Below are positions 3,099-44,220 of a stretch of DNA of 64,000 nt, piece by piece. A program made the position numbers and the translations under genes. Position 1 is the stretch's first letter, and each line of letters opens with the position of its first letter. The DNA comes from an uncultured bacterium (GTDB lineage Bacteria > Zixibacteria > MSB-5A5 > CAIYYT01), in assembly GCA_963726455.1 (NCBI GenBank), contig CAVSCK010000003.1:544001-608000 (forward strand), in the 5' to 3' direction. The notes beneath the pieces were generated by a model. That model was not told the DNA's origin. It did not search any database and was given only the letters and a program-made list of their open reading frames with translations.

Positions 3099-4238
3099 TT
3101 ACCTCACCTCCTTAATCTTGTTGAGAATCTGCATCGGGGTAATCAATTCGGAATCATAGCGACAGAGACTGATAACCTCGACATGCTTGGGTACCAGCCG
3201 CTGAACTTCATAAACCAGTTGGCCCTGATTCAGTTCGGCGACGATGACCTTCTGCAGATTCTTGGATGAGAAAATCTCGCGGTATTTCTTGTCGTGCGAT
3301 GGCCAAATTGTGATCGGCCTGACCTGGCCGACTTTCATTCTTCTCGCACGAGCCATCTGCACCGCCTGCTTGGCAGCGCGGGCGACGATACCGTACGCAT
3401 AGACCGCCACATGAGCGTCTTCCATGCCGTCGGTTTCGATCTGACAGATGTCGTCGAGATAGCGCATGATCTTATTTTGCAGTTTGCTCATCTTTGCCTG
3501 GATTTCGACCGGCTTGCTGGTCGGAAATCCGTATTCATCATGAGTCAGTCCGGTAACATGGAAACGATAACCGTCACCGAACGACGCCATCGGCGACTTG
3601 AAGTTCGGAGTGATTTCGAAGTGTTTGTACCAGCCGGCCGGAACGTCGGGTTTCTGGCGATTGATCACCGGCAGCTCGCCCTCGGCGGGAACAACGACTT
3701 TCTCCCGCATGTGTCCCAACACTTCGTCCAACAATAAGGTCACGGGTGTACGATACGATTCGGCGAGATTGAAAGCTCTCACAGTCAGGTCAATGGTCTC
3801 TCTCACCGACTGCGGCGCCAGCGCAATCGCGATATAGTCGCCGTGAGTTCCCCAGCGCGCCTGCATCGTATCCGACTGTGACACCTTGGTCGGCAGTCCG
3901 GTCGACGGGCCGCCGCGCTGCACGTTGACAACCACGGTCGGTACCTCCGCCATGTAGGCGTACCCGATGCCCTCGACCATCAGCGAGAATCCCGGACCGG
4001 AAGTCGCCGTCATCGACTTGGCGCCGGCGCAGGAGCCGCCGATAATTGCCGCCATCGACGCGATCTCGTCTTCCATCTGGATGAATTTTCCGCCGACCTT
4101 CGGCAACTTTCGCGCCAGAATTTCGGCAATTTCCGTTGACGGGGTGATCGGATATCCGGCGAACAATCGCAGGCCCGCGATCATGGCGCCTTCGGTGACC
4201 GCCTCATTCCCTTGTAGTAATTTTATATTTTCAGCCAT
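3099..4238 (-). CDS. korA: 2-oxoacid:ferredoxin oxidoreductase alpha subunit
   Basis: AGYPITPSTEI, QMEDEIAS, TATSGPGFSL, QRGGPSTGLPT. Confidence 0.94.
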   Translation of the reverse strand: MAENIKLLQGNEAVTEGAMIAGLRLFAGYPITPSTEIAEILARKLPKVGGKFIQMEDEIASMAAIIGGSCAGAKSMTATSGPGFSLMVEGIGYAYMAEVPTVVVNVQRGGPSTGLPTKVSQSDTMQARWGTHGDYIAIALAPQSVRETIDLTVRAFNLAESYRTPVTLLLDEVLGHMREKVVVPAEGELPVINRQKPDVPAGWYKHFEITPNFKSPMASFGDGYRFHVTGLTHDEYGFPTSKPVEIQAKMSKLQNKIMRYLDDICQIETDGMEDAHVAVYAYGIVARAAKQAVQMARARRMKVGQVRPITIWPSHDKKYREIFSSKNLQKVIVAELNQGQLVYEVQRLVPKHVEVISLCRYDSELITPMQILNKIKEVR

Positions 4239-25312: not shown

Positions 25313-25378
25313 ATTTGACCAATATACGCCATTCGATAGATGACACAAGCAGCCAGTTAGATGGATGTAAGGTTACGA

Positions 25379-25434
25379 ATACGTACTTCTGTACGCACTA
25401 AGTTATTGACAGATAGAGCATCGGTGTCTATATT
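25379..25434 (+). promoter_or_regulatory. Sigma70 promoter of the PAS-LuxR gene with an upstream TACG box
   Basis: TTGACA (25406-25411), 17-nt spacer, TATATT (25429-25434). ATACGTACTTCTGTACGCACT lies at 25379-25399. Confidence 0.7.
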
Positions 25435-25519
25435 GGAACTACTTAGGTGGACTAAAACCAGTTTCCGCTCGTCCTCTCCAGCGAGGGGCCTGCTTCACCT
25501 GTATTTTGGGGGTGATGAA

Positions 25520-28500
25520 GTGCACGAACCTGACGGCAGCACTGACAGCAATCAAGATCAATCGAGCTCTCCCAATACTGGCCATGTAATCGCGGGATAT
25601 ATTGTTTGGGTCAACCGCGAAGGCACAATCGAATATGTCGCGCAATGGGAAGGTGGAATCAGCTACGAAGGGCTGCTGGGAAATAGTGTGTTCGACAGGG
25701 TACCGCCCGATGCCCGGGAGATTCTGATTGCCCGATTGCAGGATGTATTCTCGACCCACGTAAATGAAACGATCATCATGCCTGCTCCTGCGGACTGCGA
25801 CAAGGGCGGCATGGTTGAGATCAAGCTGATTCCTCTGAAATATCCCGGGAAACCGATTGACAAGGTTGCCGTAGCGTTCCGTCGGACAGCCGGAGAAATT
25901 AAGTTACCGTCTCCCGAAAGAACATCGCGCCTGCAGCAAAAGGGGACGCGATTCCCCTCCCGCATGACATTCGATGAGTTGCCTTGCGAAACAAGTCTCA
26001 AGAAACAGAAACACATCGAGGCGCTGCTCAAGGAAGCCGAGGAGAATTTCCGCCGACTGGCTGATACTTCGCTGCAGGGCATCATCATCATACAGGATGA
26101 TACCATTGTATTCACCAATCAGCGCGCCGCAGACGTTATCGGAATCACGGTCGCGGAATTGACCGGCCTGACCATGGTAACTATCTCCGAGAGGTTCATC
26201 GAACCGGAATCTCGGGCCCTGCTTGATCAGAAGCGCCGTGATCTATTTGACGGCGTTGTCTACGGATCGTCGTACGAATTAAGAATCCGCACGATGTCCG
26301 GCGACGCCCGGTGGCTGGATGTCACCACGATGCCCGTTACTTATCGTGGACATGATGCAATTCAGGCGTCACTGATCGACGTCACCGACCGCAAGAAGAC
26401 CGAAGATGACTTACGTGATAGTGAGGAACGCTACCGGACTCTCGTCGAGAATGCACAAAACGCGATCTTTTCAATGGAATATGACGGAACGCTGGCCTTC
26501 TTGAATTCGGTGGCAGCCCGCATGCTCGGTGGCGAGCCCTCCGAGTACGTTGGCAAGAACGTCCGTGACTTATTCCCGCCGGATAAAGCAGAACGACATC
26601 TGGCGGCGGTACAGCGTGTAATCGATAATGGCAAGGGCGAGACGATCGAGAATCTCACGGAACTGCGGGGACAACCGCGTTGGCATATCACCAGTATCCA
26701 CCCGCTCAACGGACGAAATGGCAAACGGCATTGCGCCTTTTTGATTTCTACGGATATTACCGACTCGAAATTGGCTAGCCAGAAGCTCGCGCGGGAACGC
26801 GATTTCACGCGCTCTATTCTGCAAACGGCGAACAGTCTGATCATCTGCCTCGACGAGCGCGCCGAAATCTTGATCTTTAACGAGGAATGCGAACGCGTCA
26901 CGGGATATTCGGGCGATGAGGTCAGGGGTAAACGCTGGTCAGATATTTTCGTCCCACCTGAATATCGTCATGAAGGGCTAAAGGATTTCGGCACCTGGGT
27001 GAGAGAGCATCCCCACGACCGCAAGGAAGAGCCGATTATTACGAAATCCGGCGAGCGGCGCTGTATTCTCTGGTCCAACTCGTCGTTCATTTCACCAGAC
27101 ACCGGTGAGTTGGCCGCAATTGCAATCGGCTATGACATTACCGAAGTGAAGCGGGCCAATCAGCAACTGAAGGAAGCGGAAGCACGATATCGTAACCTGG
27201 TGGAACTGCTTCCGCAAATTGCCTATACCGCCGCACTCAACGGCAACAGTACGACGACTTATATCAGTCCACAAGTGGAGAAGATACTTGGTTTTTCTCC
27301 GGCAGAATATCTTACCAATCCCGACCTTTGGTACCAGCAGCTATATCCTGACGATCGCGAGCGGGTCCTGGCCGAACTTCGTCGCACCCACGAAACTGGA
27401 CGCCCTCTGAATATCGAGTATCGGATGTACAGCCGCGACCGACGGGTGATTTGGTTTCGTGATCATGCAGTGATAATTCGAGACAGCGACGGCACACCGC
27501 TTTTTCTTCAGGGCGTTCAATACGATATCACCGAGAACAAGGTGGCAGAAGACGCGTTGCGAGAGAGCGAAAAGCGCTTCAAAGATCTTGCCGACATGCT
27601 GCCGTCGACCGTCTTTGAGTTAAGTCTCAAGGGCAAGTTTACTTTCGTCAACAGCCACGGGTTGGACCTTTTCGGTTACACACTGGAAGAATTAAGCCAT
27701 GATGCGGCCGTATTCGACGTGCTGTCCCCGGCGGATCGCGACCGCGTGAAGAAAAGTTTGCTGGAGATTCTGGGAGGCCGCACTCTGCAGGGGGCCGAAT
27801 ATACGGCGGTGCGCAAGGACGGCAGCGCGTTCCCAGCTCTGATTCATGTCAATCGTATCTCGCACAATGGCAAGATCAGCGGCTTTCGCGGCATCCTGGT
27901 TGATATAACGCAGCGCAAGAAAGTCGAGGAATTGCTGCGGCAGTCCCAGGAGGCCTATCGCGATCTGGTGGAGAATGTTGATGACGTCCTGTATATCCTC
28001 GATCAAGATCTCGTGATCACCTATGTGAGTCCGATTGTGAAAAGCGTTTTGGGTTATGAACCGGCGGAGCTGCTGGGACAGACAGCGTTGTCACTGGTTC
28101 ATCCTGATGATTTGCCCGGACTATTGGTCAGTGTGAACGACGTCCTGAATAACCGGCTCTATCCCAGCGATTACCGGATGCTGACGAAGACCGGCGACAT
28201 TCGCTGGGTGCAAACGTCCAGCCGCCCGATTTTTGAAAAAGACAAGCTCATTGGAGTACGAGGCATCCTGACTGACATCACCGAGCGAAAACGTTCCGAA
28301 CGGGCACTGCGAGAAAGCCAGGAACGATTCGAAAGAGTTGCTCAGCAAAGTCGTGAGATGGTCTGGGAAGTTGATGCCGACGGACTGTACACTTACGTAA
28401 GTCAGGCGTGTGATGAAATTCTTGGTTATCGGCCGGACGAACTCACCGGCAAGATGCATTTCTACGATCTTCAGCCCGAGTCGGAACGCGAGGACTTCAG

Positions 28501-30253
28501 AAAGAATGCCTTTGCAAACCAGATAGTCCCGCGCGCGCCCTTTCATAATCAGGTCAACAAAGTAGTCTCCAAGACTGGCCGGGTGTTGTGGTTCCTCACC
28601 AGCGGTTCGCCGGTCCTGGATGCCGACGGAAATCTGAAAGGTTTCGTAGGCGCCGATCTTGATATCACTGAGCGAATCGAGATGGAGCAGGACCTTCATA
28701 TTAAGGAGCGGGCCCTAGCTTCGTCCATTAATGGCCTCGGCCTTGCCGATCTGCAAGGACGAATCTCGTATGTGAACGACGCCTTTGTGAAAATGTGGGG
28801 GTATACTCGCGAAGAGATTTATGCCACGCCGATGAGCAATTTGGCGTTCGATCCGCAAGACGTTGTTCGTGTAATGGACGCCATCAGATCCAAAGGGCAG
28901 TTCTTTGGTGAGTCCGTGTCGAAACGAAAAGACGGCACCCCCTTTGATGTTCAAATCTCCGCCAGTATGGTGACCAATGCATCCAATCAACCGATTGCCA
29001 TGCTGGCCACATTTATTGACATCACCGAACGCAAGCGGAGCGAACGAGCCTTACAAATGAGCGAGGAACGTTTCCGTCTTCTCTACAAAGGGAATCCGCT
29101 GCCGACCTATACATGGCAGCGAAGAAACGGTGACTTCTTTCTGGTTGAGTGTAACAGCGCCGCCGTGACAATGACGAACGGCAAGATCGCTTCATACATC
29201 GGCGTCAACGCGAAAGAGCTCTTCGTGAAGCGGCCGGACGTGTTTGATGACCTGAATCTCTGCCTCGACGAACGATCCAACTTCAACCGTGAAATGGAAT
29301 ATCAGCTTGGTTCTCCCGGGCGGACCGTGCTGTTCTCAGTCAGGTACAACTTCGTGCCCCCCGACTTGGTATTGGTACAGACAGAGGACATCACTCAACG
29401 GAAACATGCTGAAAGCGCTTTGAAAATGAGCGAGGAAAGATTCCGAGCGCTCTTCAAGGGCAGCCCGTTACCGATGGTGCTGTTTCAATGGAGGATGGGA
29501 GATCTCGTCCTGATAGACACCAATGACGCGACGAATTCCGTGACCGAGGGGAAACTCGCCCAACTAACCGGTGAAACGGCCAAACACATATTTCAGACAG
29601 ATCAGGAGTTTCTGAACGAACTGTATGAATGCTTCAGCCACCAGTCAACTATCAGTCGGGAAGTCCGTCATCAATTTTGGGGCACAGACCATGAGCTGCG
29701 GCTATCTGTCTTTTGTTCTTTTGTCCCCCCTGATTTGATGCTCATACAAGCTGAAGACATCACCGAGAGAAAACGAATGGAAGAGCGCCTCCTAAGCGCA
29801 AAGCTGCAATTGGAGCGCGACAGTCAGGCACTGAAAGAAAAGAATATCACGCTCAAAGAAGTCCTGACTCAGATTCAGGACGAAGTTGATCAAGTAAAGC
29901 AGAACATCCAGTCCAATATCAGTAAGCTTGTCATACCAGTCTTGTTAAGACTCAGGGAGAAAGCAAGGGAGAGCGACCGAATCGAACTGGAGCATCTGGA
30001 ATCAGTGCTGAGTAACGCAGCCTCTCCGTTTATCCGTGACATAGAATCACGATTTGTTCAATTGACGCCGCGCGAGACGGAAATCTGCAACATGATTTGT
30101 AACGGGCTGCAATCCAAGGAGATCGGTCAGGCGCTGGGTATCTCCCATCGAACTGTAGAGAAGTTTCGCCAGAAAATCAGAGCAAAACTGGGAGTAAAAG
30201 ACCGCGACACCAATCTTACGTCCTTTATTCGATCGCTATCCCAAAAGCCGTGA
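25520..30253 (+). CDS. Multi-PAS (about 11) one-component regulator with a C-terminal LuxR-type HTH
   Basis: Ten PAS/PAC units ending in D(I/V)T plus a degenerate N-terminal PAS; LTPRETEIC...G.QSKEIG..LGIS.RTVEKFR..I..KL; no H-box, HATPase or REC. Start uncertain (GTG 25520; ORF is open from 25361). Confidence 0.9.
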   Translation: MHEPDGSTDSNQDQSSSPNTGHVIAGYIVWVNREGTIEYVAQWEGGISYEGLLGNSVFDRVPPDAREILIARLQDVFSTHVNETIIMPAPADCDKGGMVEIKLIPLKYPGKPIDKVAVAFRRTAGEIKLPSPERTSRLQQKGTRFPSRMTFDELPCETSLKKQKHIEALLKEAEENFRRLADTSLQGIIIIQDDTIVFTNQRAADVIGITVAELTGLTMVTISERFIEPESRALLDQKRRDLFDGVVYGSSYELRIRTMSGDARWLDVTTMPVTYRGHDAIQASLIDVTDRKKTEDDLRDSEERYRTLVENAQNAIFSMEYDGTLAFLNSVAARMLGGEPSEYVGKNVRDLFPPDKAERHLAAVQRVIDNGKGETIENLTELRGQPRWHITSIHPLNGRNGKRHCAFLISTDITDSKLASQKLARERDFTRSILQTANSLIICLDERAEILIFNEECERVTGYSGDEVRGKRWSDIFVPPEYRHEGLKDFGTWVREHPHDRKEEPIITKSGERRCILWSNSSFISPDTGELAAIAIGYDITEVKRANQQLKEAEARYRNLVELLPQIAYTAALNGNSTTTYISPQVEKILGFSPAEYLTNPDLWYQQLYPDDRERVLAELRRTHETGRPLNIEYRMYSRDRRVIWFRDHAVIIRDSDGTPLFLQGVQYDITENKVAEDALRESEKRFKDLADMLPSTVFELSLKGKFTFVNSHGLDLFGYTLEELSHDAAVFDVLSPADRDRVKKSLLEILGGRTLQGAEYTAVRKDGSAFPALIHVNRISHNGKISGFRGILVDITQRKKVEELLRQSQEAYRDLVENVDDVLYILDQDLVITYVSPIVKSVLGYEPAELLGQTALSLVHPDDLPGLLVSVNDVLNNRLYPSDYRMLTKTGDIRWVQTSSRPIFEKDKLIGVRGILTDITERKRSERALRESQERFERVAQQSREMVWEVDADGLYTYVSQACDEILGYRPDELTGKMHFYDLQPESEREDFRKNAFANQIVPRAPFHNQVNKVVSKTGRVLWFLTSGSPVLDADGNLKGFVGADLDITERIEMEQDLHIKERALASSINGLGLADLQGRISYVNDAFVKMWGYTREEIYATPMSNLAFDPQDVVRVMDAIRSKGQFFGESVSKRKDGTPFDVQISASMVTNASNQPIAMLATFIDITERKRSERALQMSEERFRLLYKGNPLPTYTWQRRNGDFFLVECNSAAVTMTNGKIASYIGVNAKELFVKRPDVFDDLNLCLDERSNFNREMEYQLGSPGRTVLFSVRYNFVPPDLVLVQTEDITQRKHAESALKMSEERFRALFKGSPLPMVLFQWRMGDLVLIDTNDATNSVTEGKLAQLTGETAKHIFQTDQEFLNELYECFSHQSTISREVRHQFWGTDHELRLSVFCSFVPPDLMLIQAEDITERKRMEERLLSAKLQLERDSQALKEKNITLKEVLTQIQDEVDQVKQNIQSNISKLVIPVLLRLREKARESDRIELEHLESVLSNAASPFIRDIESRFVQLTPRETEICNMICNGLQSKEIGQALGISHRTVEKFRQKIRAKLGVKDRDTNLTSFIRSLSQKP

Positions 30254-30332
30254 TACGTACATTGCGTACGCACTGCGTACGCGGTCGTGGCGTATTGATC
30301 TGGCTTGACATTTTCCCACATTTTGCCATCTT
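30253..30332 (+). promoter_or_regulatory. Promoter of the putative sRNA with tandem TACG/CGTA boxes
   Basis: ATACGTACATTGCGTACGCACTGCGTACGC (30253-30282); TTGACA 30305-30310; TGcCATCTT as a possible extended -10. Confidence 0.55.
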
Positions 30333-30339
30333 TTACGTA

Positions 30340-30746
30340 GCGATGCACAAGGGGCTAATCGGGTGGAATCTTCTATAGGCGGCGAAGGTTCGAAGAGGAA
30401 GCCAGGCAATTAGGCAAGGTTTCTCGAACCTCAGATAGTTAGGTGAGCCGGAGGATTTCCCAGATCAGAATGAACTGATTTCGTAATCGATCACAGGATG
30501 TGATCGAAACTGCGCGACCCGGAAACTGTGTACGCGAGTGGTTAACTCTGACGACTCCCTTTGGGAGGGTTGGCAGGACGAATCAGGGAGGCAGGACAAC
30601 GGGGGAAACTGGCGGCTGGCTGTGAAGCGGAGGTGAATCGCAGAACACTCTGCGCTGGTTTTGTGATTCGAGAGACTTCGTGAACGGTTAGTTACCAGAC
30701 CTTGGTAAGACCCGGTGGTGACCAAGCTGCCACCGGGTTTAATTTT
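30340..30746 (+). ncRNA. Putative structured non-coding RNA (~400 nt), possibly CsrB/Rsm-like
   Basis: No credible ORF; at least 7 hairpins, several with G-U pairs favouring the + strand; CAC-AGGAU-GUG loop; flanked by a promoter and an intrinsic terminator. Confidence 0.6.
30710..30746 (+). terminator. Intrinsic terminator
   Basis: ACCCGGTGG...CCACCGGGT followed by TTAATTTT. Confidence 0.75.
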
Positions 30747-30835
30747 GCTCAGTCTTGACTCCTACCTTCATATATATCCTCCCACATTTCATCACTCGAT
30801 ATCTATTAAGCCGAGAATCGGCCTCGCACGCAAAT

Positions 30836-30871
30836 AAAAGACCGGGAATCTCTTAGTGAGATTCCCGGTCT
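30836..30871 (-). terminator. Intrinsic terminator of the C25 protease gene
   Basis: AGACCGGGAATCTC-ttagt-GAGATTCCCGGTCT perfect stem with a T tract on the minus strand. Confidence 0.8.
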
Positions 30872-30899
30872 GATTATCGATCGGAATTAGATCTGATCG

Positions 30900-33800
30900 T
30901 TATTTAGTGCAAGGAGCCGGACCGCCTGAGAAAATGTAAGCGATCAAGAAAACGGCATCCGAGATGTCAACAGCTGTGTCGCAGTTGGCATCACCCAGCT
31001 CAAGTGGATTCGGAGCCGCTCCGCCACTAAAGATGTAGCCGATGATAAATACGACGTCAGAGATATCGATCGAACCGCTGCCGTCAGCATCGCCCGACAT
31101 CACTTGAGTTCCACCGACATTCATCGTAACCGGTATGTTGTGAACCGGGTTTGTAGGTGCGTTCGAGCCGATTGTCAACGAACCCGTGTAGGTTGAGTCG
31201 ATACACTCGGCGGCGTTGAACCCGATGGTCAGGGTGTCGCTGCCGTGCGGATCGATGCTGCCACCACTCGGATCGGAAGAGAGCCACGTGTTAAGCGGGC
31301 TCTTGAAGAGAATTGCTAAGTTGCCGTGCAAGTAGGCGGCATTGAATACGATCTGTGAACCGTCCAGACCGGTGCGATTCTCAATACCAACGCTGCTGCC
31401 CAGAATATCGAATCCCGCGGCTATGGTCTGATATTGAATTCTGATCTTGCCATTGGGCGACAGGATAACTTCCGCCGTGATGACATCACCAGGATTGGTC
31501 GTGGCATCGTACTCCGGATAGTTCTTGTACTCGATCACCAGGTCACCATTGACCACTTGATAGAGCACCTTGCCTCCGGGGCTGTCCGGATCAAGGATAT
31601 TGAGGTCGTCCCAACACCAGGCAATCATATTGTTCGGAGTGCCGGATGTCGGAATAGCGACGTTGCCCAAAGAGCTGAGATCGGTAGTCGGGCCAAATCC
31701 GATCAGGCCGTTGGCGCCAATATAGAACTCGGTGTAAACCGAATCATAGTACTGGAAGCTGAATCCGATCGGGAACGGACCGATGAAGTTGTCATCGGCC
31801 AGACCAGCCGTAACGTTGGTGCCTGTGGCTTCAATGTCAACCCAAGCGAAGGTCGGTCCACCCGGTTCATCCGAATCTCTCCAGGTGTATCCAAAGGCAT
31901 CCGGACCGCCTGAACCCTTCGTCATCTCGGCGAAATACGGCTCGGTATAACCGGTCTTATCCGGATCGGCTACGCGGGTACCCAACGGCACCTGCGGAGT
32001 CGGTGGAACATACGCCGTCTTGTCAGTGTTGCTGGCTACCGTGTAGGACAGTCTTCCCGGACCAGGGTTCTGAATGATGACCGATTTGGTGATTGTGGCG
32101 CCGCTATCAAGCACGGCGGTTAATGAAGTCGTGTTGATGACCATCTGGGGGATGTGGACATAAACGTTGGCCGGAACGGTTCCGGTCGTATGGCCGGGGA
32201 CGTTGGATACAAAATTGAGCGCGCCAGTATTGGCTCCCGGCGTCAGGCCGGCACTCTTGATGGTGACTGGGATCGTCAAGAACTCACCCGGAACGATTAT
32301 GTTCTGGGCTGTCGGGCAAGAGAGCCAGGAATTTGCCGGGGTGAATCTGATGCGCAGGTTGGACAAACCGGTGTTGGTTACCACCAGGTCAACCACGGAA
32401 GTGTCACCACCGACCAAACTGTCCGCAACGGCATCGGGAGCGAACGAATACGCAGCAGCGCCGCTTCCCGATGTCACATAACCCTTGAGTTCGATATCGT
32501 CAATATTCCAGCCGCAGTAGACCTGCGAACCGTCCGTCGGGCCAAGGCCCCAACGAAGCTGGAACAGCGGATTTCCGTCGGCATACGTTGCGAGATCAAA
32601 GAAGCTCTCGGTCCAACCCGACTCGCTTAACGTGGCGGCGTTGGAATAGAGGTTGATCCAGTTCGTGCCATCAAATACTTCGAAGTATGCGTGGTCATAG
32701 CTTGAGCTTTCCACGCCGAGTTGATGCCAGTAAGTCATCTGAACACCGGTTGCATTGCTGCAGTCAATGATCGGTGACTCTGCCCAGTAGGTCTGGCTAA
32801 TGCTATTGGCGTATGAACCGGGGTTACCCAGGTTGTTGCCCAGGATCATATTGGACGGACCCACTGTATGGTCGTCCGAGGGATCGGGGCTGCCCGAAGA
32901 AGATGAGCCACCGATTGCGGGGCCGATCTGCCATTGCGCAGCAGTTCCGAGACCAACCCAGCCCTGTTCGACCGTGAAGTCTTCGACGAAGAATGCGACG
33001 CGGTCACCGATCGTCATATTGAAGTTCGACGAGGTGAGGTAGCCGCCGTCACCGGAAATCGTCAACTTGGCAAGAAACGCGTGACCCATCGGAGTGGTCG
33101 AATCCGCTTGAACGATGAAAGCGTCAGCTGCGTTGTTAGCTGTGCCTCCGCCACCGTTAATGTTGCCGAAGAAGCCGGTGCTCTTAATGATATTGACTTT
33201 TGGATCTATCGCGCTAAGCGTGCCATTGATATTGAACGCCTGGCCGGAACCGCTGTTCTGAACCGTAATGGTCACCGGAGCGGTTTCGCCCGGGTCAAGT
33301 ATGCCGTTGTTGTTGCCGGACACGTCATTCACAGTGACTGACAGGTAAGCAACCGTCGGGGCATGCGTGGTCACGGTGAAGAAGCTCGTCCAGGTGTCGG
33401 TACCGGTACCAACAACGCTGACGTCGAACTTGATGCTGTGTCCATCGGGAGTCGACGGATCAACGGTAAAGGCAAAAGCGTCGGCAATATTCTTGGTGGT
33501 CATGCCGCCCGCCATGGTGCCGTAGTTTTCAGTGGCATCCGAGATTGTGACATAGCTGTCGGTCGTCGAAATCGTAGCTACGACGTCATTGGCAGCGTCA
33601 GGACCCACGTTGATGAGTTCCATGCCGAGCAGGATGTTTTCGCCGAAATCGATTTGGCCGTTGTTATTGCCGGCGGCATCGTTGATGGCATGGGCGTTGT
33701 GAACGATATATGGTCCATTCGGAGCGATAACCTGAATGGTCGTTACGTAAGGAATCAGGTTCTGGCCGGTAACGACGAGGTCAGCGGCACATGGCGCCCC

Positions 33801-35783
33801 GAACGGTGTCAGCGTCATATCGACGGTGCCGCCTGAGCCAACCAGCGCCGCGCCATGAAGCACGCCGCCAGACGACAAAGCGACATAAGAACCGGGGGCC
33901 GCCTGCACGGAAAATGTCGTGGACGTCATCAACATCGACGGCAGGTGCATGACGGGGTTCGTGGACGGAACCATCATGTAGGTGGAGAGTGACGGATCAC
34001 CCATCAGACTGTAGATTTCCCAGTAGTACTGTTTCTTGCTACTGGTCGACTGCTCAACGGCAAGAACGCCGCAATAGTTCATGGCGCCGTTGGTGATGTA
34101 ATGCTTGTTGGCCGGCTCGCCATGCTCGTGGAAAGTGCCGTCGTAGGCGCCAATTTTGGTGGCATCATACGGCGGACCGGCGGCGACGATGGCCTTGCCA
34201 CCACCAACGCCCCACCAGTAATCCTCATCCCAATAGGTGCTGTTGGTGCCACCGATATAACCGATGGAACCACCGTTGGCTTTCTGCAGAATCGCTTCAC
34301 CAAAACACGGAGTGCTTTCGGTAAACGTATTTGTCAGGCAGCAGTTGCCGACGGCGGTGAAGTACTTGTGATTGTTGGTAAGGGCATTGACATCGCTCAC
34401 GCCGAACGAAGGATCGGCCCAGCCATCGTGGCTGCCATGAGCGGTATAGTTGACAAAACCAACGCCCGAATTGTAGGTCGCGATAATGGCGGACTCAACC
34501 GAACCACCCGAGGCCGGATAGAGCCAAACGTTGGAGTTGATGTCGTGCGCAACGTTGAAATACAGATTCGTGCCGTAGTTGATCTGTCCATTGCCATAGG
34601 TAGCCGCGTAGCTGGCGTCGGCACCGGCAATAAGCGTGCAGTTGGCCAGGTATGACGGATCGGGCATAGTGTACTGCTCGTACTCGAGAGTCTTATCAAT
34701 TTGCGGCTGCAATTGTCCGGTTGTTTGCGCGGAGAAGCGGCCGATATAGACTTCCGGAATATTGTCACCGGTGTATTCGACAAACCGCATGTCAGTTACG
34801 TGCGAACCGGCGCCGCCTGCGAACGGCGGAATCTGCGGCGAGTCACCTACCAAAAGAACAAACGACGGCTTCGGATTCTCAGAGTTGTACAGTCCCTGAA
34901 GGTAAGTCTTAATGGCCGTGTTCGTAGTGCCGACGACATCGGTATAGCCCACGATAACTTTGAAACCCTTCTTGACCTTCCAGGCGATAAAGGGCTGCAA
35001 TTGGGCTTCGAACATTCTCGCCGACACGATGACCATCGTCATCGGATAGCGGGTGAGGTCGTCACGAAGTCCGAATGTGGATGCATCCGAATTCATCAGC
35101 ATCTGATAAAGCGGCTCGAATGCCGGAGAGTAGGTCGAGGTGTAGAGCTCGTTGGTAGCCGACCAGTCGGGATGCTCGAAACTCACCCGAACCGTCATCT
35201 CTTTGCATACTCTGATCTTATTCTGCGCGGCGTCATATTCAACCGGCGCCACTGATACTCTGCCAACTCGAAGGCCGCGCATAATACCCGCGACTTCGGC
35301 GGACGCCTTTGAAATCTGATAGTAGCCAGTGCGATTATACACGTCCTGATTGTACTCAAACGGAACATCGTCCGGATTTTGAGACTTGCTCAAAGACGGT
35401 TGAACCGGCATGATCCGGTTATAAACACCGTAATCTGCCAGAGAGATTTCCTGAATGTCGCTGGATAGAACCTCTGCTGTAAGGTCGCAGCCGAGTGGGA
35501 TAGCCATGAGCTGGTCGACGATAGGAACGCTCGGTTCGCCGACTCTGCCCGAACGGTCTATTCCCTGGGCGGTAAGCATCGTAAAGGCGCCAGCCTTGGT
35601 GTTGACCGGCGAAACCTCAAGCGAACCAACGGAAACTTTCAGAGTAAGGCCATTCTGGTCTCGCTCCATCAGTTGAATTCCATTGGTCGCATCACTCAGC
35701 TTGATCAGTTGTCCGGCAATGACAGAATTGCCGGCACCAATCACGAATAGCAACGTGAGGGCGACAATGACAAGCTTTCTCAA
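30900..35783 (-). CDS. Gingipain-like peptidase C25 with propeptide, Ig-like/adhesin domains and a C-terminal dockerin
   Basis: TTG start after GGAGG; signal peptide; VLLVGD, IGRFSA, YTAHGS (His), GNCCLT (Cys), LMGDPSL; duplicated dockerin motif at the C-terminus. Confidence 0.9.
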   Translation of the reverse strand: MRKLVIVALTLLFVIGAGNSVIAGQLIKLSDATNGIQLMERDQNGLTLKVSVGSLEVSPVNTKAGAFTMLTAQGIDRSGRVGEPSVPIVDQLMAIPLGCDLTAEVLSSDIQEISLADYGVYNRIMPVQPSLSKSQNPDDVPFEYNQDVYNRTGYYQISKASAEVAGIMRGLRVGRVSVAPVEYDAAQNKIRVCKEMTVRVSFEHPDWSATNELYTSTYSPAFEPLYQMLMNSDASTFGLRDDLTRYPMTMVIVSARMFEAQLQPFIAWKVKKGFKVIVGYTDVVGTTNTAIKTYLQGLYNSENPKPSFVLLVGDSPQIPPFAGGAGSHVTDMRFVEYTGDNIPEVYIGRFSAQTTGQLQPQIDKTLEYEQYTMPDPSYLANCTLIAGADASYAATYGNGQINYGTNLYFNVAHDINSNVWLYPASGGSVESAIIATYNSGVGFVNYTAHGSHDGWADPSFGVSDVNALTNNHKYFTAVGNCCLTNTFTESTPCFGEAILQKANGGSIGYIGGTNSTYWDEDYWWGVGGGKAIVAAGPPYDATKIGAYDGTFHEHGEPANKHYITNGAMNYCGVLAVEQSTSSKKQYYWEIYSLMGDPSLSTYMMVPSTNPVMHLPSMLMTSTTFSVQAAPGSYVALSSGGVLHGAALVGSGGTVDMTLTPFGAPCAADLVVTGQNLIPYVTTIQVIAPNGPYIVHNAHAINDAAGNNNGQIDFGENILLGMELINVGPDAANDVVATISTTDSYVTISDATENYGTMAGGMTTKNIADAFAFTVDPSTPDGHSIKFDVSVVGTGTDTWTSFFTVTTHAPTVAYLSVTVNDVSGNNNGILDPGETAPVTITVQNSGSGQAFNINGTLSAIDPKVNIIKSTGFFGNINGGGGTANNAADAFIVQADSTTPMGHAFLAKLTISGDGGYLTSSNFNMTIGDRVAFFVEDFTVEQGWVGLGTAAQWQIGPAIGGSSSSGSPDPSDDHTVGPSNMILGNNLGNPGSYANSISQTYWAESPIIDCSNATGVQMTYWHQLGVESSSYDHAYFEVFDGTNWINLYSNAATLSESGWTESFFDLATYADGNPLFQLRWGLGPTDGSQVYCGWNIDDIELKGYVTSGSGAAAYSFAPDAVADSLVGGDTSVVDLVVTNTGLSNLRIRFTPANSWLSCPTAQNIIVPGEFLTIPVTIKSAGLTPGANTGALNFVSNVPGHTTGTVPANVYVHIPQMVINTTSLTAVLDSGATITKSVIIQNPGPGRLSYTVASNTDKTAYVPPTPQVPLGTRVADPDKTGYTEPYFAEMTKGSGGPDAFGYTWRDSDEPGGPTFAWVDIEATGTNVTAGLADDNFIGPFPIGFSFQYYDSVYTEFYIGANGLIGFGPTTDLSSLGNVAIPTSGTPNNMIAWCWDDLNILDPDSPGGKVLYQVVNGDLVIEYKNYPEYDATTNPGDVITAEVILSPNGKIRIQYQTIAAGFDILGSSVGIENRTGLDGSQIVFNAAYLHGNLAILFKSPLNTWLSSDPSGGSIDPHGSDTLTIGFNAAECIDSTYTGSLTIGSNAPTNPVHNIPVTMNVGGTQVMSGDADGSGSIDISDVVFIIGYIFSGGAAPNPLELGDANCDTAVDISDAVFLIAYIFSGGPAPCTK

Positions 35784-36062
35784 AGGTACCTCCAATGTGT
35801 TTGGGTGGTGAAGGAACTTGTGGCAGTTCCACGCGGGGATGGGTTATACACAATTTTCATTCTACTCGATGGCACAGTTGCAAGTATATCAATGACTAAT
35901 ATATGAAAACAGGTCTGAAATCCAACAAAAAAACGCTTCGGACCCCGAAAAAGTGCGGCCTATATCAATACTAGGATACGATTTATCCTGTTTAGAGCCA
36001 AGAGGCTCTCAAAGACGAAGTATTGTCGAAACGGGATGCTGAGAAACCCCCGTGGTCGAAGA

Positions 36063-44130: not shown

Positions 44131-44220
44131 TGGCGGAGAGTGAGGGATTCGAACCCCCGGTCCCCGTAAAGGGACAACGGTTTTCAAGACCGCCGCTTTC
44201 GACCGCTCAGCCAACTCTCC
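44131..44220 (-). tRNA. tRNA-Ser(TGA)
   Basis: GGAGAGTTGGCTGAGCGG...TCTTGAAAA anticodon loop, long variable arm, GGTTCGAATCC, encoded CCA. Confidence 0.96.

Follow-up and report, generated by a model that had tools for sequence, protein, structure and literature searches.

Within a stretch of 64,000 nucleotides (nt) from an uncultured Zixibacteria bacterium (contig CAVSCK010000003.1, positions 544,001 to 608,000; referred to as the window), we find what is very likely a real non-coding RNA gene of about 405 nt at positions 30340-30747 of the plus strand, i.e., directly downstream of a gene for a multi-PAS/LuxR sensor-regulator. Based on sequence comparison, we consider it a genuine, newly recognised gene for a previously undescribed, genus-restricted structured small RNA (sRNA), and synteny as well as an operator-like repeat common to both appear to tie it to the regulator. 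The evidence comes from its fold, its alignment with homologs, covariation and a terminator. A preliminary description of the locus had offered two alternatives, namely a Csr-type sponge RNA or a new structured RNA class. The latter stands, given that no Rfam family matches, that the RNA has a promoter-like box and a terminator of its own and that its helices carry compensatory changes. The former is not backed by the tests of its GGA motifs.

The RNA is located in a 646-nt gap between the plus-strand open reading frame (ORF) 25361-30253 and the convergent minus-strand ORF 30900-35795. The gap holds no convincing ORF, as had been said of 30340-30746 before, and the same result is obtained with seven homologous sequences, i.e., the window, three relatives of the same genus (G001-G003) and three metagenome contigs. 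They share no ORF on either strand, which rules out a small protein, and their alignment shows indels of 1, 2 and 43 nt inside the conserved core. At the 3' end, a terminator scan reports an intrinsic terminator (30708-30747, plus strand) with a stem of 13 pairs (30708-30740) and a T-rich tail, just where the preliminary description had put one behind the hairpins. It is also flagged in the G003 locus (L004), and three of its pairs are changed on both sides within the alignment. The predicted 3' end follows from this terminator, the predicted 5' end from promoter spacing. That is, a start about 7 nt past the -10 box gives position 30340, the coordinate already proposed. The element is single-copy in its own genome (G000). 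An independent sRNA gene would be expected to have its own promoter, to end in an intrinsic terminator, to code for no protein and to be conserved together with its structure. Terminator, lack of a shared ORF and covariation are present, and the promoter shows as a conserved TTGAC box with weak consensus matches.

None of the 4227 families of Rfam 15 matches the RNA at gathering score, so it cannot be identified with a known family; the sole match in the whole window is a tRNA gene (44134-44220, minus strand). Relaxing the threshold to E<=10 for region 30150-30950 yields five chance-level matches, the best of which scores 19.8 bits against a cut-off of 60, and with E<=1 there is none on the RNA in the six homolog loci. 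The locus had been said not to look like tmRNA, RNase P RNA or 6S RNA, which agrees with our searches. ARAGORN finds nothing in 30000-31000, the genome's tmRNA being encoded at G000:C4:1264149-1264514 (195.6 bits), and the RNase P RNA likewise has its copy elsewhere (C4:1146685-1147049, 294 bits). With regard to 6S RNA, neither RF00013 nor RF01685 matches at the locus, and the RNA is confined to one genus. The Rfam 6S model finds nothing in the own genome and gives a match, below the cut-off, in one of 21 family genomes; in the RF01685 genome search the control was positive in no genome. The missing 6S RNA is a detection gap of the whole family and no pointer to the RNA studied here, i.e., an RNA limited to one genus cannot fill it. 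At 3 kb downstream from the main gene, a second tmRNA-like match is found (G000:C4:1267337-1267681, 103.9 bits, cut-off 47), possibly a duplicate that an element integrating at ssrA has left behind.

Conservation and predicted fold

A covariance model of the RNA core (R1) detects the RNA in all three other genomes of the genus, i.e., in four of four, while BLAST recovers two of the three and misses one. Outside the genus, BLAST reports no homolog among 57 further relatives, and the model none in 17 other genomes of the family and, using stricter filters, none in 147 other genomes of the class from 73 other genera. Overall, 4/151 genomes of the class carry the RNA, all from the same genus. Screening metagenome contigs with a 19-nt core pattern gave nine loci, of which the model accepts three as true homologs (E<=1.6e-32); the remaining six were dropped as chance matches (five without model match, one weak with E 0.38). 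By these searches, its distribution does not go beyond one genus of Candidatus Zixiibacteriota. There, gene order is the same in 4/4 genomes (tblastn, 3/3 relatives), that is, the multi-PAS/LuxR gene is followed by the RNA and a convergent C25 peptidase gene. The DNA of the RNA core is 78-79% identical, compared to 58-69% for the flanking proteins, and conservation drops directly past the terminator.

Covariation was assessed for the RNAalifold consensus of the seven-sequence alignment, which comprises 115 pairs. Standard pairs are formed by 93.8% of the respective alignment cells, a share that falls to 38-48% after sliding the 3' partners by 1-3 columns. Changes on both sides are observed for 20/115 predicted pairs. 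In shuffled alignments the number is 5.2 +/- 1.9 (0/500 reach 20), and sliding leaves 2-7. The comparison of homologs suggested in the preliminary description thus supports the structure.

The same holds for the energy comparison it had called for. The plus strand of 30340-30746 folds with a minimum free energy (MFE) of -157.9 kcal/mol versus -131.7 +/- 6.0 for 100 dinucleotide shuffles (z -4.35), none of which folds as well, while the reverse strand shows z -1.89 with 6/100 shuffles as good. The window is the extreme case among the homologs, and its excess stability is partly due to an inserted hairpin that only the window has. In all seven sequences, the plus strand is rich in G (30-33%) and poor in C (16-21%), which fits an RNA that uses G-U pairs on this strand only. 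With a mean unpaired probability of 0.31-0.36, the RNA is mostly paired.

The predicted fold starts with a nearly invariant 5' motif GGGGCUAAUCGGGU (30351-30364). Its part UCGGGU (30359-30364) is predicted to pair with ACCCGG (30517-30522), which closes a 5' domain of three hairpins. This closing helix (columns 15-20 with 173-178) is kept in 7/7 sequences with one U-A to U-G change, and UCGGGU/ACCCG(G/A) is also found when each of the seven is folded separately. For the interior of the domain, two folds compete. The MFE fold of the window pairs 30362-30374 with 30449-30461 and thereby encloses the inserted 46-nt hairpin (30386-30431), which corresponds to an alignment gap in the six homologs. 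This is, up to one position per strand, the stem 30361-30374/30450-30461 that had been drawn before. The next hairpin, drawn at 30464-30479, is found at about 30462-30481. It is followed by hairpin HP-A (30487-30507), reading TCGATCAC-AGGAT-GTGATCGA in the DNA and UCGAUCAC-AGGAU-GUGAUCGA in the RNA. The HP-A stem varies by lineage, being almost wholly different in the window, with four pairs changed on both sides, and its GGA loop occurs in the window only.

Behind the 5' domain follows a long irregular core hairpin (about 30510-30620) with HP-B (30547-30577) at its tip, for which 11/11 pairs are kept and seven are invariant. Its purine-rich 3' strand (30567-30619) is the most conserved part of the RNA, showing AGG(A/G) about every 10 nt. 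The purine-rich stretch described earlier (30574-30634), with CAGGAC, CAGGGA, CAGGAC and GCGGAG, is present as well. Within 30567-30619, 45/53 positions are invariant in 7/7 sequences, compared to 34/57 of the opposite strand (30510-30566). That is, the purine-rich strand seems to be read for its sequence and not for pairing alone. HP-C (30635-30669) is rebuilt with other sequence in the window and in the metagenome sequence M016 and shows one C-G to U-A change in G001. In G003, its 5' flank and 5' half are duplicated in tandem (L004:1189-1275, period 43, 2.0 copies, 86% matches), which shows that modules can be added without losing the gene. HP-A, HP-B, HP-C and the terminator are each formed in 7/7 separately folded sequences. 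All hairpins drawn in the preliminary description up to this point (including 30487-30507, 30548-30576 and 30635-30669) are part of the MFE fold. Only the one proposed at 30692-30708 has to be given up: it can be drawn (UUACCA/UGGUAA), but it is neither part of the MFE fold nor conserved.

The regulator gene and the shared repeat

The product of the upstream gene (25361-30253, plus strand) is a sensor-regulator that combines many PAS domains with a LuxR/GerE helix-turn-helix at the C-terminus. In Pfam, PAS families match in up to eight stretches, and residues 1567-1615 match GerE (E 1e-12). Searching with its C-terminus gave 44 loci, three of which are 56-60% identical and belong to the genus; the rest are partial with 23-55% best-segment identity. 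The listed start at 25361 precedes the predicted promoter (affecting the first ~80 nt of the ORF), and orthologs align only from about residue 7-60 on. Thus, the true start codon is probably located downstream of about 25442.

The promoter-like site of the regulator gene (25406-25434) consists of TTGACA (25406-25411), a 17-nt spacer and TATATT (25429-25434), and it is conserved in G001 and G002 as TTGACA-17-TATATT. Eight nt upstream of its -35 box, where only a short spacer separates the gene from a divergent rhomboid gene, we find the operator-like inverted repeat TACGTAC-TTCT-GTACGCA (25380-25397). In G001 and G002, the same repeat occupies the same place between a divergent rhomboid gene and the PAS-LuxR gene (sites confirmed by tblastn to both proteins). 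A second copy, TACGTAC-ATTGC-GTACGCA (30254-30272), starts right after the regulator's stop codon and is extended by an additional GCGTACGC (30275-30282). Counted from the RNA's -35 box, it covers the region 23-51 nt upstream, and 7/7 homologs have it at this place as TACGTAC-N5-(G/A)TACGCA. Common to both promoters is TACGTAC-N4-5-(G/A)TACGCA.

The promoter-like site of the RNA (30305-30333) comprises TTGACA (30305-30310), 17 nt and ATCTTT (30328-30333). TTGAC is invariant in 7/7 sequences, and the hexamer 17 nt behind it is TATTTT in five, TACTTT in one and ATCTTT in the window, i.e., the homologs read TTGACT-17-TATTTT or TACTTT. In the consensus scan, two homologs are picked up at this site, L004 and L016, with 9/12 matches.

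To judge how specific the repeat is, we consider the pattern TACGTACN{3,7}RTACGC. It matches five times in the own genome versus zero times for the reversed control, and exactly twice each in G001 and G002, namely at the RNA and before the PAS-LuxR gene. In G003 the repeat is found at the RNA site only, on a short contig, and the 17 family genomes outside the genus give six matches in total versus nine for the reversed control. Taken by itself, the palindrome GCGTACGC shows no enrichment (55 places versus about 72 expected from base composition by our own estimate), such that only the full inverted repeat is informative. LuxR/GerE-family regulators bind inverted repeats as dimers. Since the repeat is conserved at two sites in these genomes, namely at the promoters of the regulator and of the RNA, the RNA is probably a dedicated output of the neighbouring PAS-LuxR regulator, and we consider it reasonably likely that this protein controls the RNA through the shared repeat.

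Two further observations concern the repeat. A third copy, TACGTAC-ACCAT-GTACGCA, is located outside the window in an intergenic region (G000:C4:1857586-1857603, minus strand; locus L074, about 3560-4110). It is followed by 32 nt, TTGACG, an ATATTA-like -10 box, a leader of about 420 nt and an ORF of 1200+ amino acids, which has no Pfam match and whose N-terminus looks like a signal peptide. The locus may belong to the regulon as well or encode another RNA; searching G001-G003 with the pattern gives no equivalent site. Within the RNA, the 5' core strand contains ACTGTGTACGCG (30525-30536), which is 92% identical to the promoter-proximal repeat ACTGCGTACGCG (30272-30283). This could be coincidence, or the DNA may offer that factor an additional site downstream.

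The convergent gene behind the RNA (30900-35795, minus strand) encodes a C25 (gingipain-type) peptidase with a dockerin domain according to Pfam. It lies outside the RNA and has its own terminator (30871-30839).

Proposed mechanism and competing explanations

As a whole, the observations are best explained by an independently transcribed, regulator-linked structured RNA that probably binds a protein, an explanation that we favour tentatively. The RNA would form its own transcription unit, starting from the TTGAC-type promoter and ending at the intrinsic terminator. There is no terminator between the stop codon of the PAS-LuxR gene (30253) and the RNA, which therefore shares the 3' end of that unit, such that read-through transcripts of the regulator gene must carry the RNA too. 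The PAS-LuxR protein would bind both inverted repeats, thereby autoregulate and, once its PAS domains sense their signal, drive the RNA as dedicated output. The RNA would fold into the closed three-hairpin 5' domain, followed by the long irregular core hairpin, one more hairpin and the terminator, presenting the purine-rich core strand (30567-30619) as its working surface. It would act in trans by titrating or scaffolding a protein. No Hfq gene was found in the own genome, which is 100% complete by marker genes, and to some extent this speaks against a base-pairing RNA of the classical, Hfq-dependent type. Given a long, mostly paired RNA, no Hfq and no antisense partner above chance level, a protein-binding RNA fits best, although we regard this mode of action as an uncertain possibility.

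Several points weigh against this explanation. The 5' end, the promoter and the expression of the RNA are all inferred from sequence; a search for sequencing runs gave five, none of them recorded as RNA. The -10 hexamer of the window (ATCTTT) is poor and the consensus scan does not flag the site there, and the 9/12 matches of the flagged homolog sites are no better than those of other sites nearby. The distance between repeat and -35 box differs within the window (8 nt for the regulator, 32 nt for the RNA), and a factor other than the PAS-LuxR protein may bind the two repeats. With regard to the fold, z-values of the homologs' plus strands are modest (-1.0, -1.9, -1.9, -2.6, -3.7 and -3.9; 50 shuffles each). 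The seven sequences approximate one deep split, i.e., the window versus six close relatives, such that most two-sided changes are single events. Furthermore, since the tested structure goes back to these very sequences, the difference from the slid controls is inflated. Two-sided changes are absent from the core helices, which are too conserved among the seven sequences for covariation to bear on the core fold. Finally, the strongly conserved strand equally resembles a base-pairing seed.

Such a seed leads to an Hfq-independent base-pairing sRNA, for which the purine-rich strand or the 5' end GGGGCUAAUCGGGU would be the seed for pyrimidine-rich sites in mRNAs or another RNA, with the rest as scaffold. 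The strongest conservation is indeed found in one core strand (45/53) and the 5' end, i.e., seed-like, and an sRNA gene beside its own transcription factor is typical of such sRNAs, as known from OxyR/OxyS, GcvA/GcvB and SgrR/SgrS. On the other hand, about 405 nt with an unpaired probability of 0.31-0.36 is unusually long and closed for this type, Hfq was not found, and a purine-rich seed is unable to pair with Shine-Dalgarno sequences. The longest antisense matches in the own genome span 13-15 nt, which is chance level (E>=1.1). We thus consider base pairing unlikely. Repeated 13-nt antisense matches were discarded, since their source is tandem repeats with a common CTCCC...GGGAG hairpin and otherwise no relation to the RNA. 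A target search by duplex energy was equally set aside: the PAS-LuxR leader reaches -112.5 versus a background of -111.8 +/- 9.5 (n=713), i.e., whole-length folding zips any pair. As an observation of its own, intergenic tandem-repeat arrays of G000 C3 have units with a CTCCC-N3-5-GGGAG hairpin (C3:62824-63140 with period of about 101 nt, C3:64581-64913 with period 83 nt, and C3:29440-29841 with matches 120-160 nt apart); they are related to the RNA by this short hairpin motif only.

Alternatively, the element could be a structured 3' untranslated region of the PAS-LuxR mRNA that acts in cis only (stability, termination, protection against 3' exonucleases) and has no transcript of its own. Without a terminator after the stop codon at 30253, the PAS-LuxR transcript must enter the RNA and end at 30747. 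RNA and gene co-occur in 4/4 genomes, and the -10 box of the window is weak. However, neither the invariant TTGAC, with its fixed 17-nt spacing to a TAnnnT-like hexamer in 6/7 sequences, nor the operator-like repeat upstream of it would be needed by a pure 3' untranslated region. In addition, the one-strand sequence constraint goes beyond what a stabilising structure needs. This reading therefore seems rather improbable to us.

The sponge proposed in the preliminary description would bind CsrA dimers at several GGA sites and thereby relieve CsrA-mediated repression, a role that we now consider improbable; the same holds for placing the PAS-LuxR regulator in the role of GacA/UvrY toward RsmZ/CsrB. 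GacA/UvrY, the drivers of the Csr/Rsm sRNAs, belong to the GerE-type DNA-binding family, and the adjacent regulator bears a GerE-type helix-turn-helix. A sponge needs csrA, for which, together with fliW, the preliminary description had asked. Both are present, csrA at G000:C4:301621-301773 (PF02599 81.7 bits; Pfam CsrA E 2.6e-24), such that the refutation by a missing csrA does not apply, and the lack of a detectable Hfq gene would also suit a sponge. According to an excerpt of PMC7652899, BarA-UvrY activates CsrB/C, CsrB carries 22 GGA, and CsrA sites of high affinity are short hairpins that have GGA in their loop (consensus RUACARGGAUGU from SELEX, i.e., in vitro selection). The conserved core likewise shows AGG(A/G) motifs every ~10 nt. 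Three GGA sites (30450, 30576, 30604) are invariant in 7/7 sequences, each lineage has one GGA hairpin loop in the 5' domain (the AGGAU of HP-A in the window, the second hairpin AUAGGAAG in the six relatives), GGA triplets are exposed above average in 3/7 sequences, and the module duplication of G003 is sponge-like.

Other observations speak against a sponge. The seven homologs (386-428 nt) contain 12, 10, 10, 12, 9, 8 and 9 GGA, which is no enrichment: the window's 12 compare to 14.2 +/- 2.5 in dinucleotide shuffles (1693/2000 reach 12) and the 10 of G002 to 11.2 +/- 2.4. Only three GGA columns are invariant, the sole textbook site (the AGGAU loop, 30495-30499) occurs in 1/7 sequences, and exposure is average in 4/7. 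In two of the seven, AAGGAC is changed to AAAGAC, i.e., a core GGA is lost while the predicted pair is kept (U-G to U-A). No CsrB, CsrC or Rsm family of Rfam matches in the window or the six homolog loci. The genomic context of csrA counts against it as well: csrA is located between flgK and a flagellin-family gene, with fliW 2.3 kb downstream (C4:304085-304444), i.e., the genome's CsrA is of the flagellar, FliW-antagonised type. As given in the same excerpt of PMC7652899, sponge sRNAs are known from Gammaproteobacteria under BarA-UvrY, while FliW is the protein antagonist in other lineages and absent from Gammaproteobacteria. Moreover, CsrA is found in 14/17 family genomes outside the genus (18/21 for the whole family), none of the 17 having the RNA. 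The sequence tests thus do not support the sponge reading. Within this region (G000:C4:300217-304444; L002, L062), the csrA product of 107 amino acids has a C-terminal extension of about 55 residues.

That there is no functional RNA at all, i.e., that DNA-level elements or recent descent explain the conservation and that composition plus two terminators explain the folding excess, is very improbable: the weakest homolog z-value is -1.0 and only seven sequences of one genus are at hand, but core DNA is still 78-79% identical where flanking proteins are down to 58-69%, helices are rebuilt with different sequences, and strand asymmetry and G-U pairs fit the plus strand only.

Relation to known systems and meaning

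Among known systems, CsrB/CsrC and RsmX/Y/Z of Gammaproteobacteria, driven by GacA/UvrY, are similar in being long, hairpin-rich and intrinsically terminated, with CsrB also similar in size. Furthermore, a GerE/LuxR-type regulator apparently acts via an upstream inverted repeat, and csrA is in the genome. In contrast to these, the RNA described here shows no GGA enrichment, no conserved GGA hairpin loops and no Rfam match. Its regulator is a one-component multi-PAS protein instead of a response regulator, its gene is fused to the 3' end of the regulator gene, and CsrA is part of a flagellar FliW module.

An RNA gene adjoining its regulator gene is shared with OxyR/OxyS, GcvA/GcvB and SgrR/SgrS, and here a binding-type motif common to both precedes the RNA promoter. 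sRNAs of the OxyS/GcvB/SgrS type are 100-230 nt long, Hfq-dependent and mostly divergently transcribed, while the RNA of the window has about 405 nt, is arranged in tandem after its regulator gene and resides in a genome without detectable Hfq. DapZ and MicL, which derive from 3' untranslated regions, resemble it in having a promoter-like box near the end of the upstream coding region and in sharing the mRNA terminator. Their promoters lie inside the coding region and they are short base-pairing RNAs, whereas here promoter and operator-like repeat are found in an 86-nt spacer past the stop codon. 6S RNA is likewise structured and of housekeeping size, and it binds a protein as proposed for the RNA here, but forms a single rod with a central bubble instead of several hairpins.

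Comparative evidence thus points to a well-supported new sRNA family with narrow distribution. A full-text literature search of limited scope found no regulatory RNA for Zixibacteria. The locus would be a compact module of a sensor-regulator, a shared operator and one structured RNA, whose operator is open to tests in a heterologous host, with no need to culture the organism. If the RNA base-pairs, it would be unusually large for such an RNA in a genome without Hfq. If it binds a protein, regulation by decoy RNAs would extend to a new phylum. The most far-reaching version, which we consider a long shot, is a Gac/Rsm-like cascade that an uncultured phylum has rebuilt from different parts: a one-component multi-PAS/LuxR sensor would have essentially a single output, namely a 405-nt decoy RNA whose invariant strand titrates a FliW-type CsrA or another RNA-binding protein. 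If true, a protein-sequestering sRNA would be described for the first time outside the Proteobacteria, and for the first time alongside FliW.

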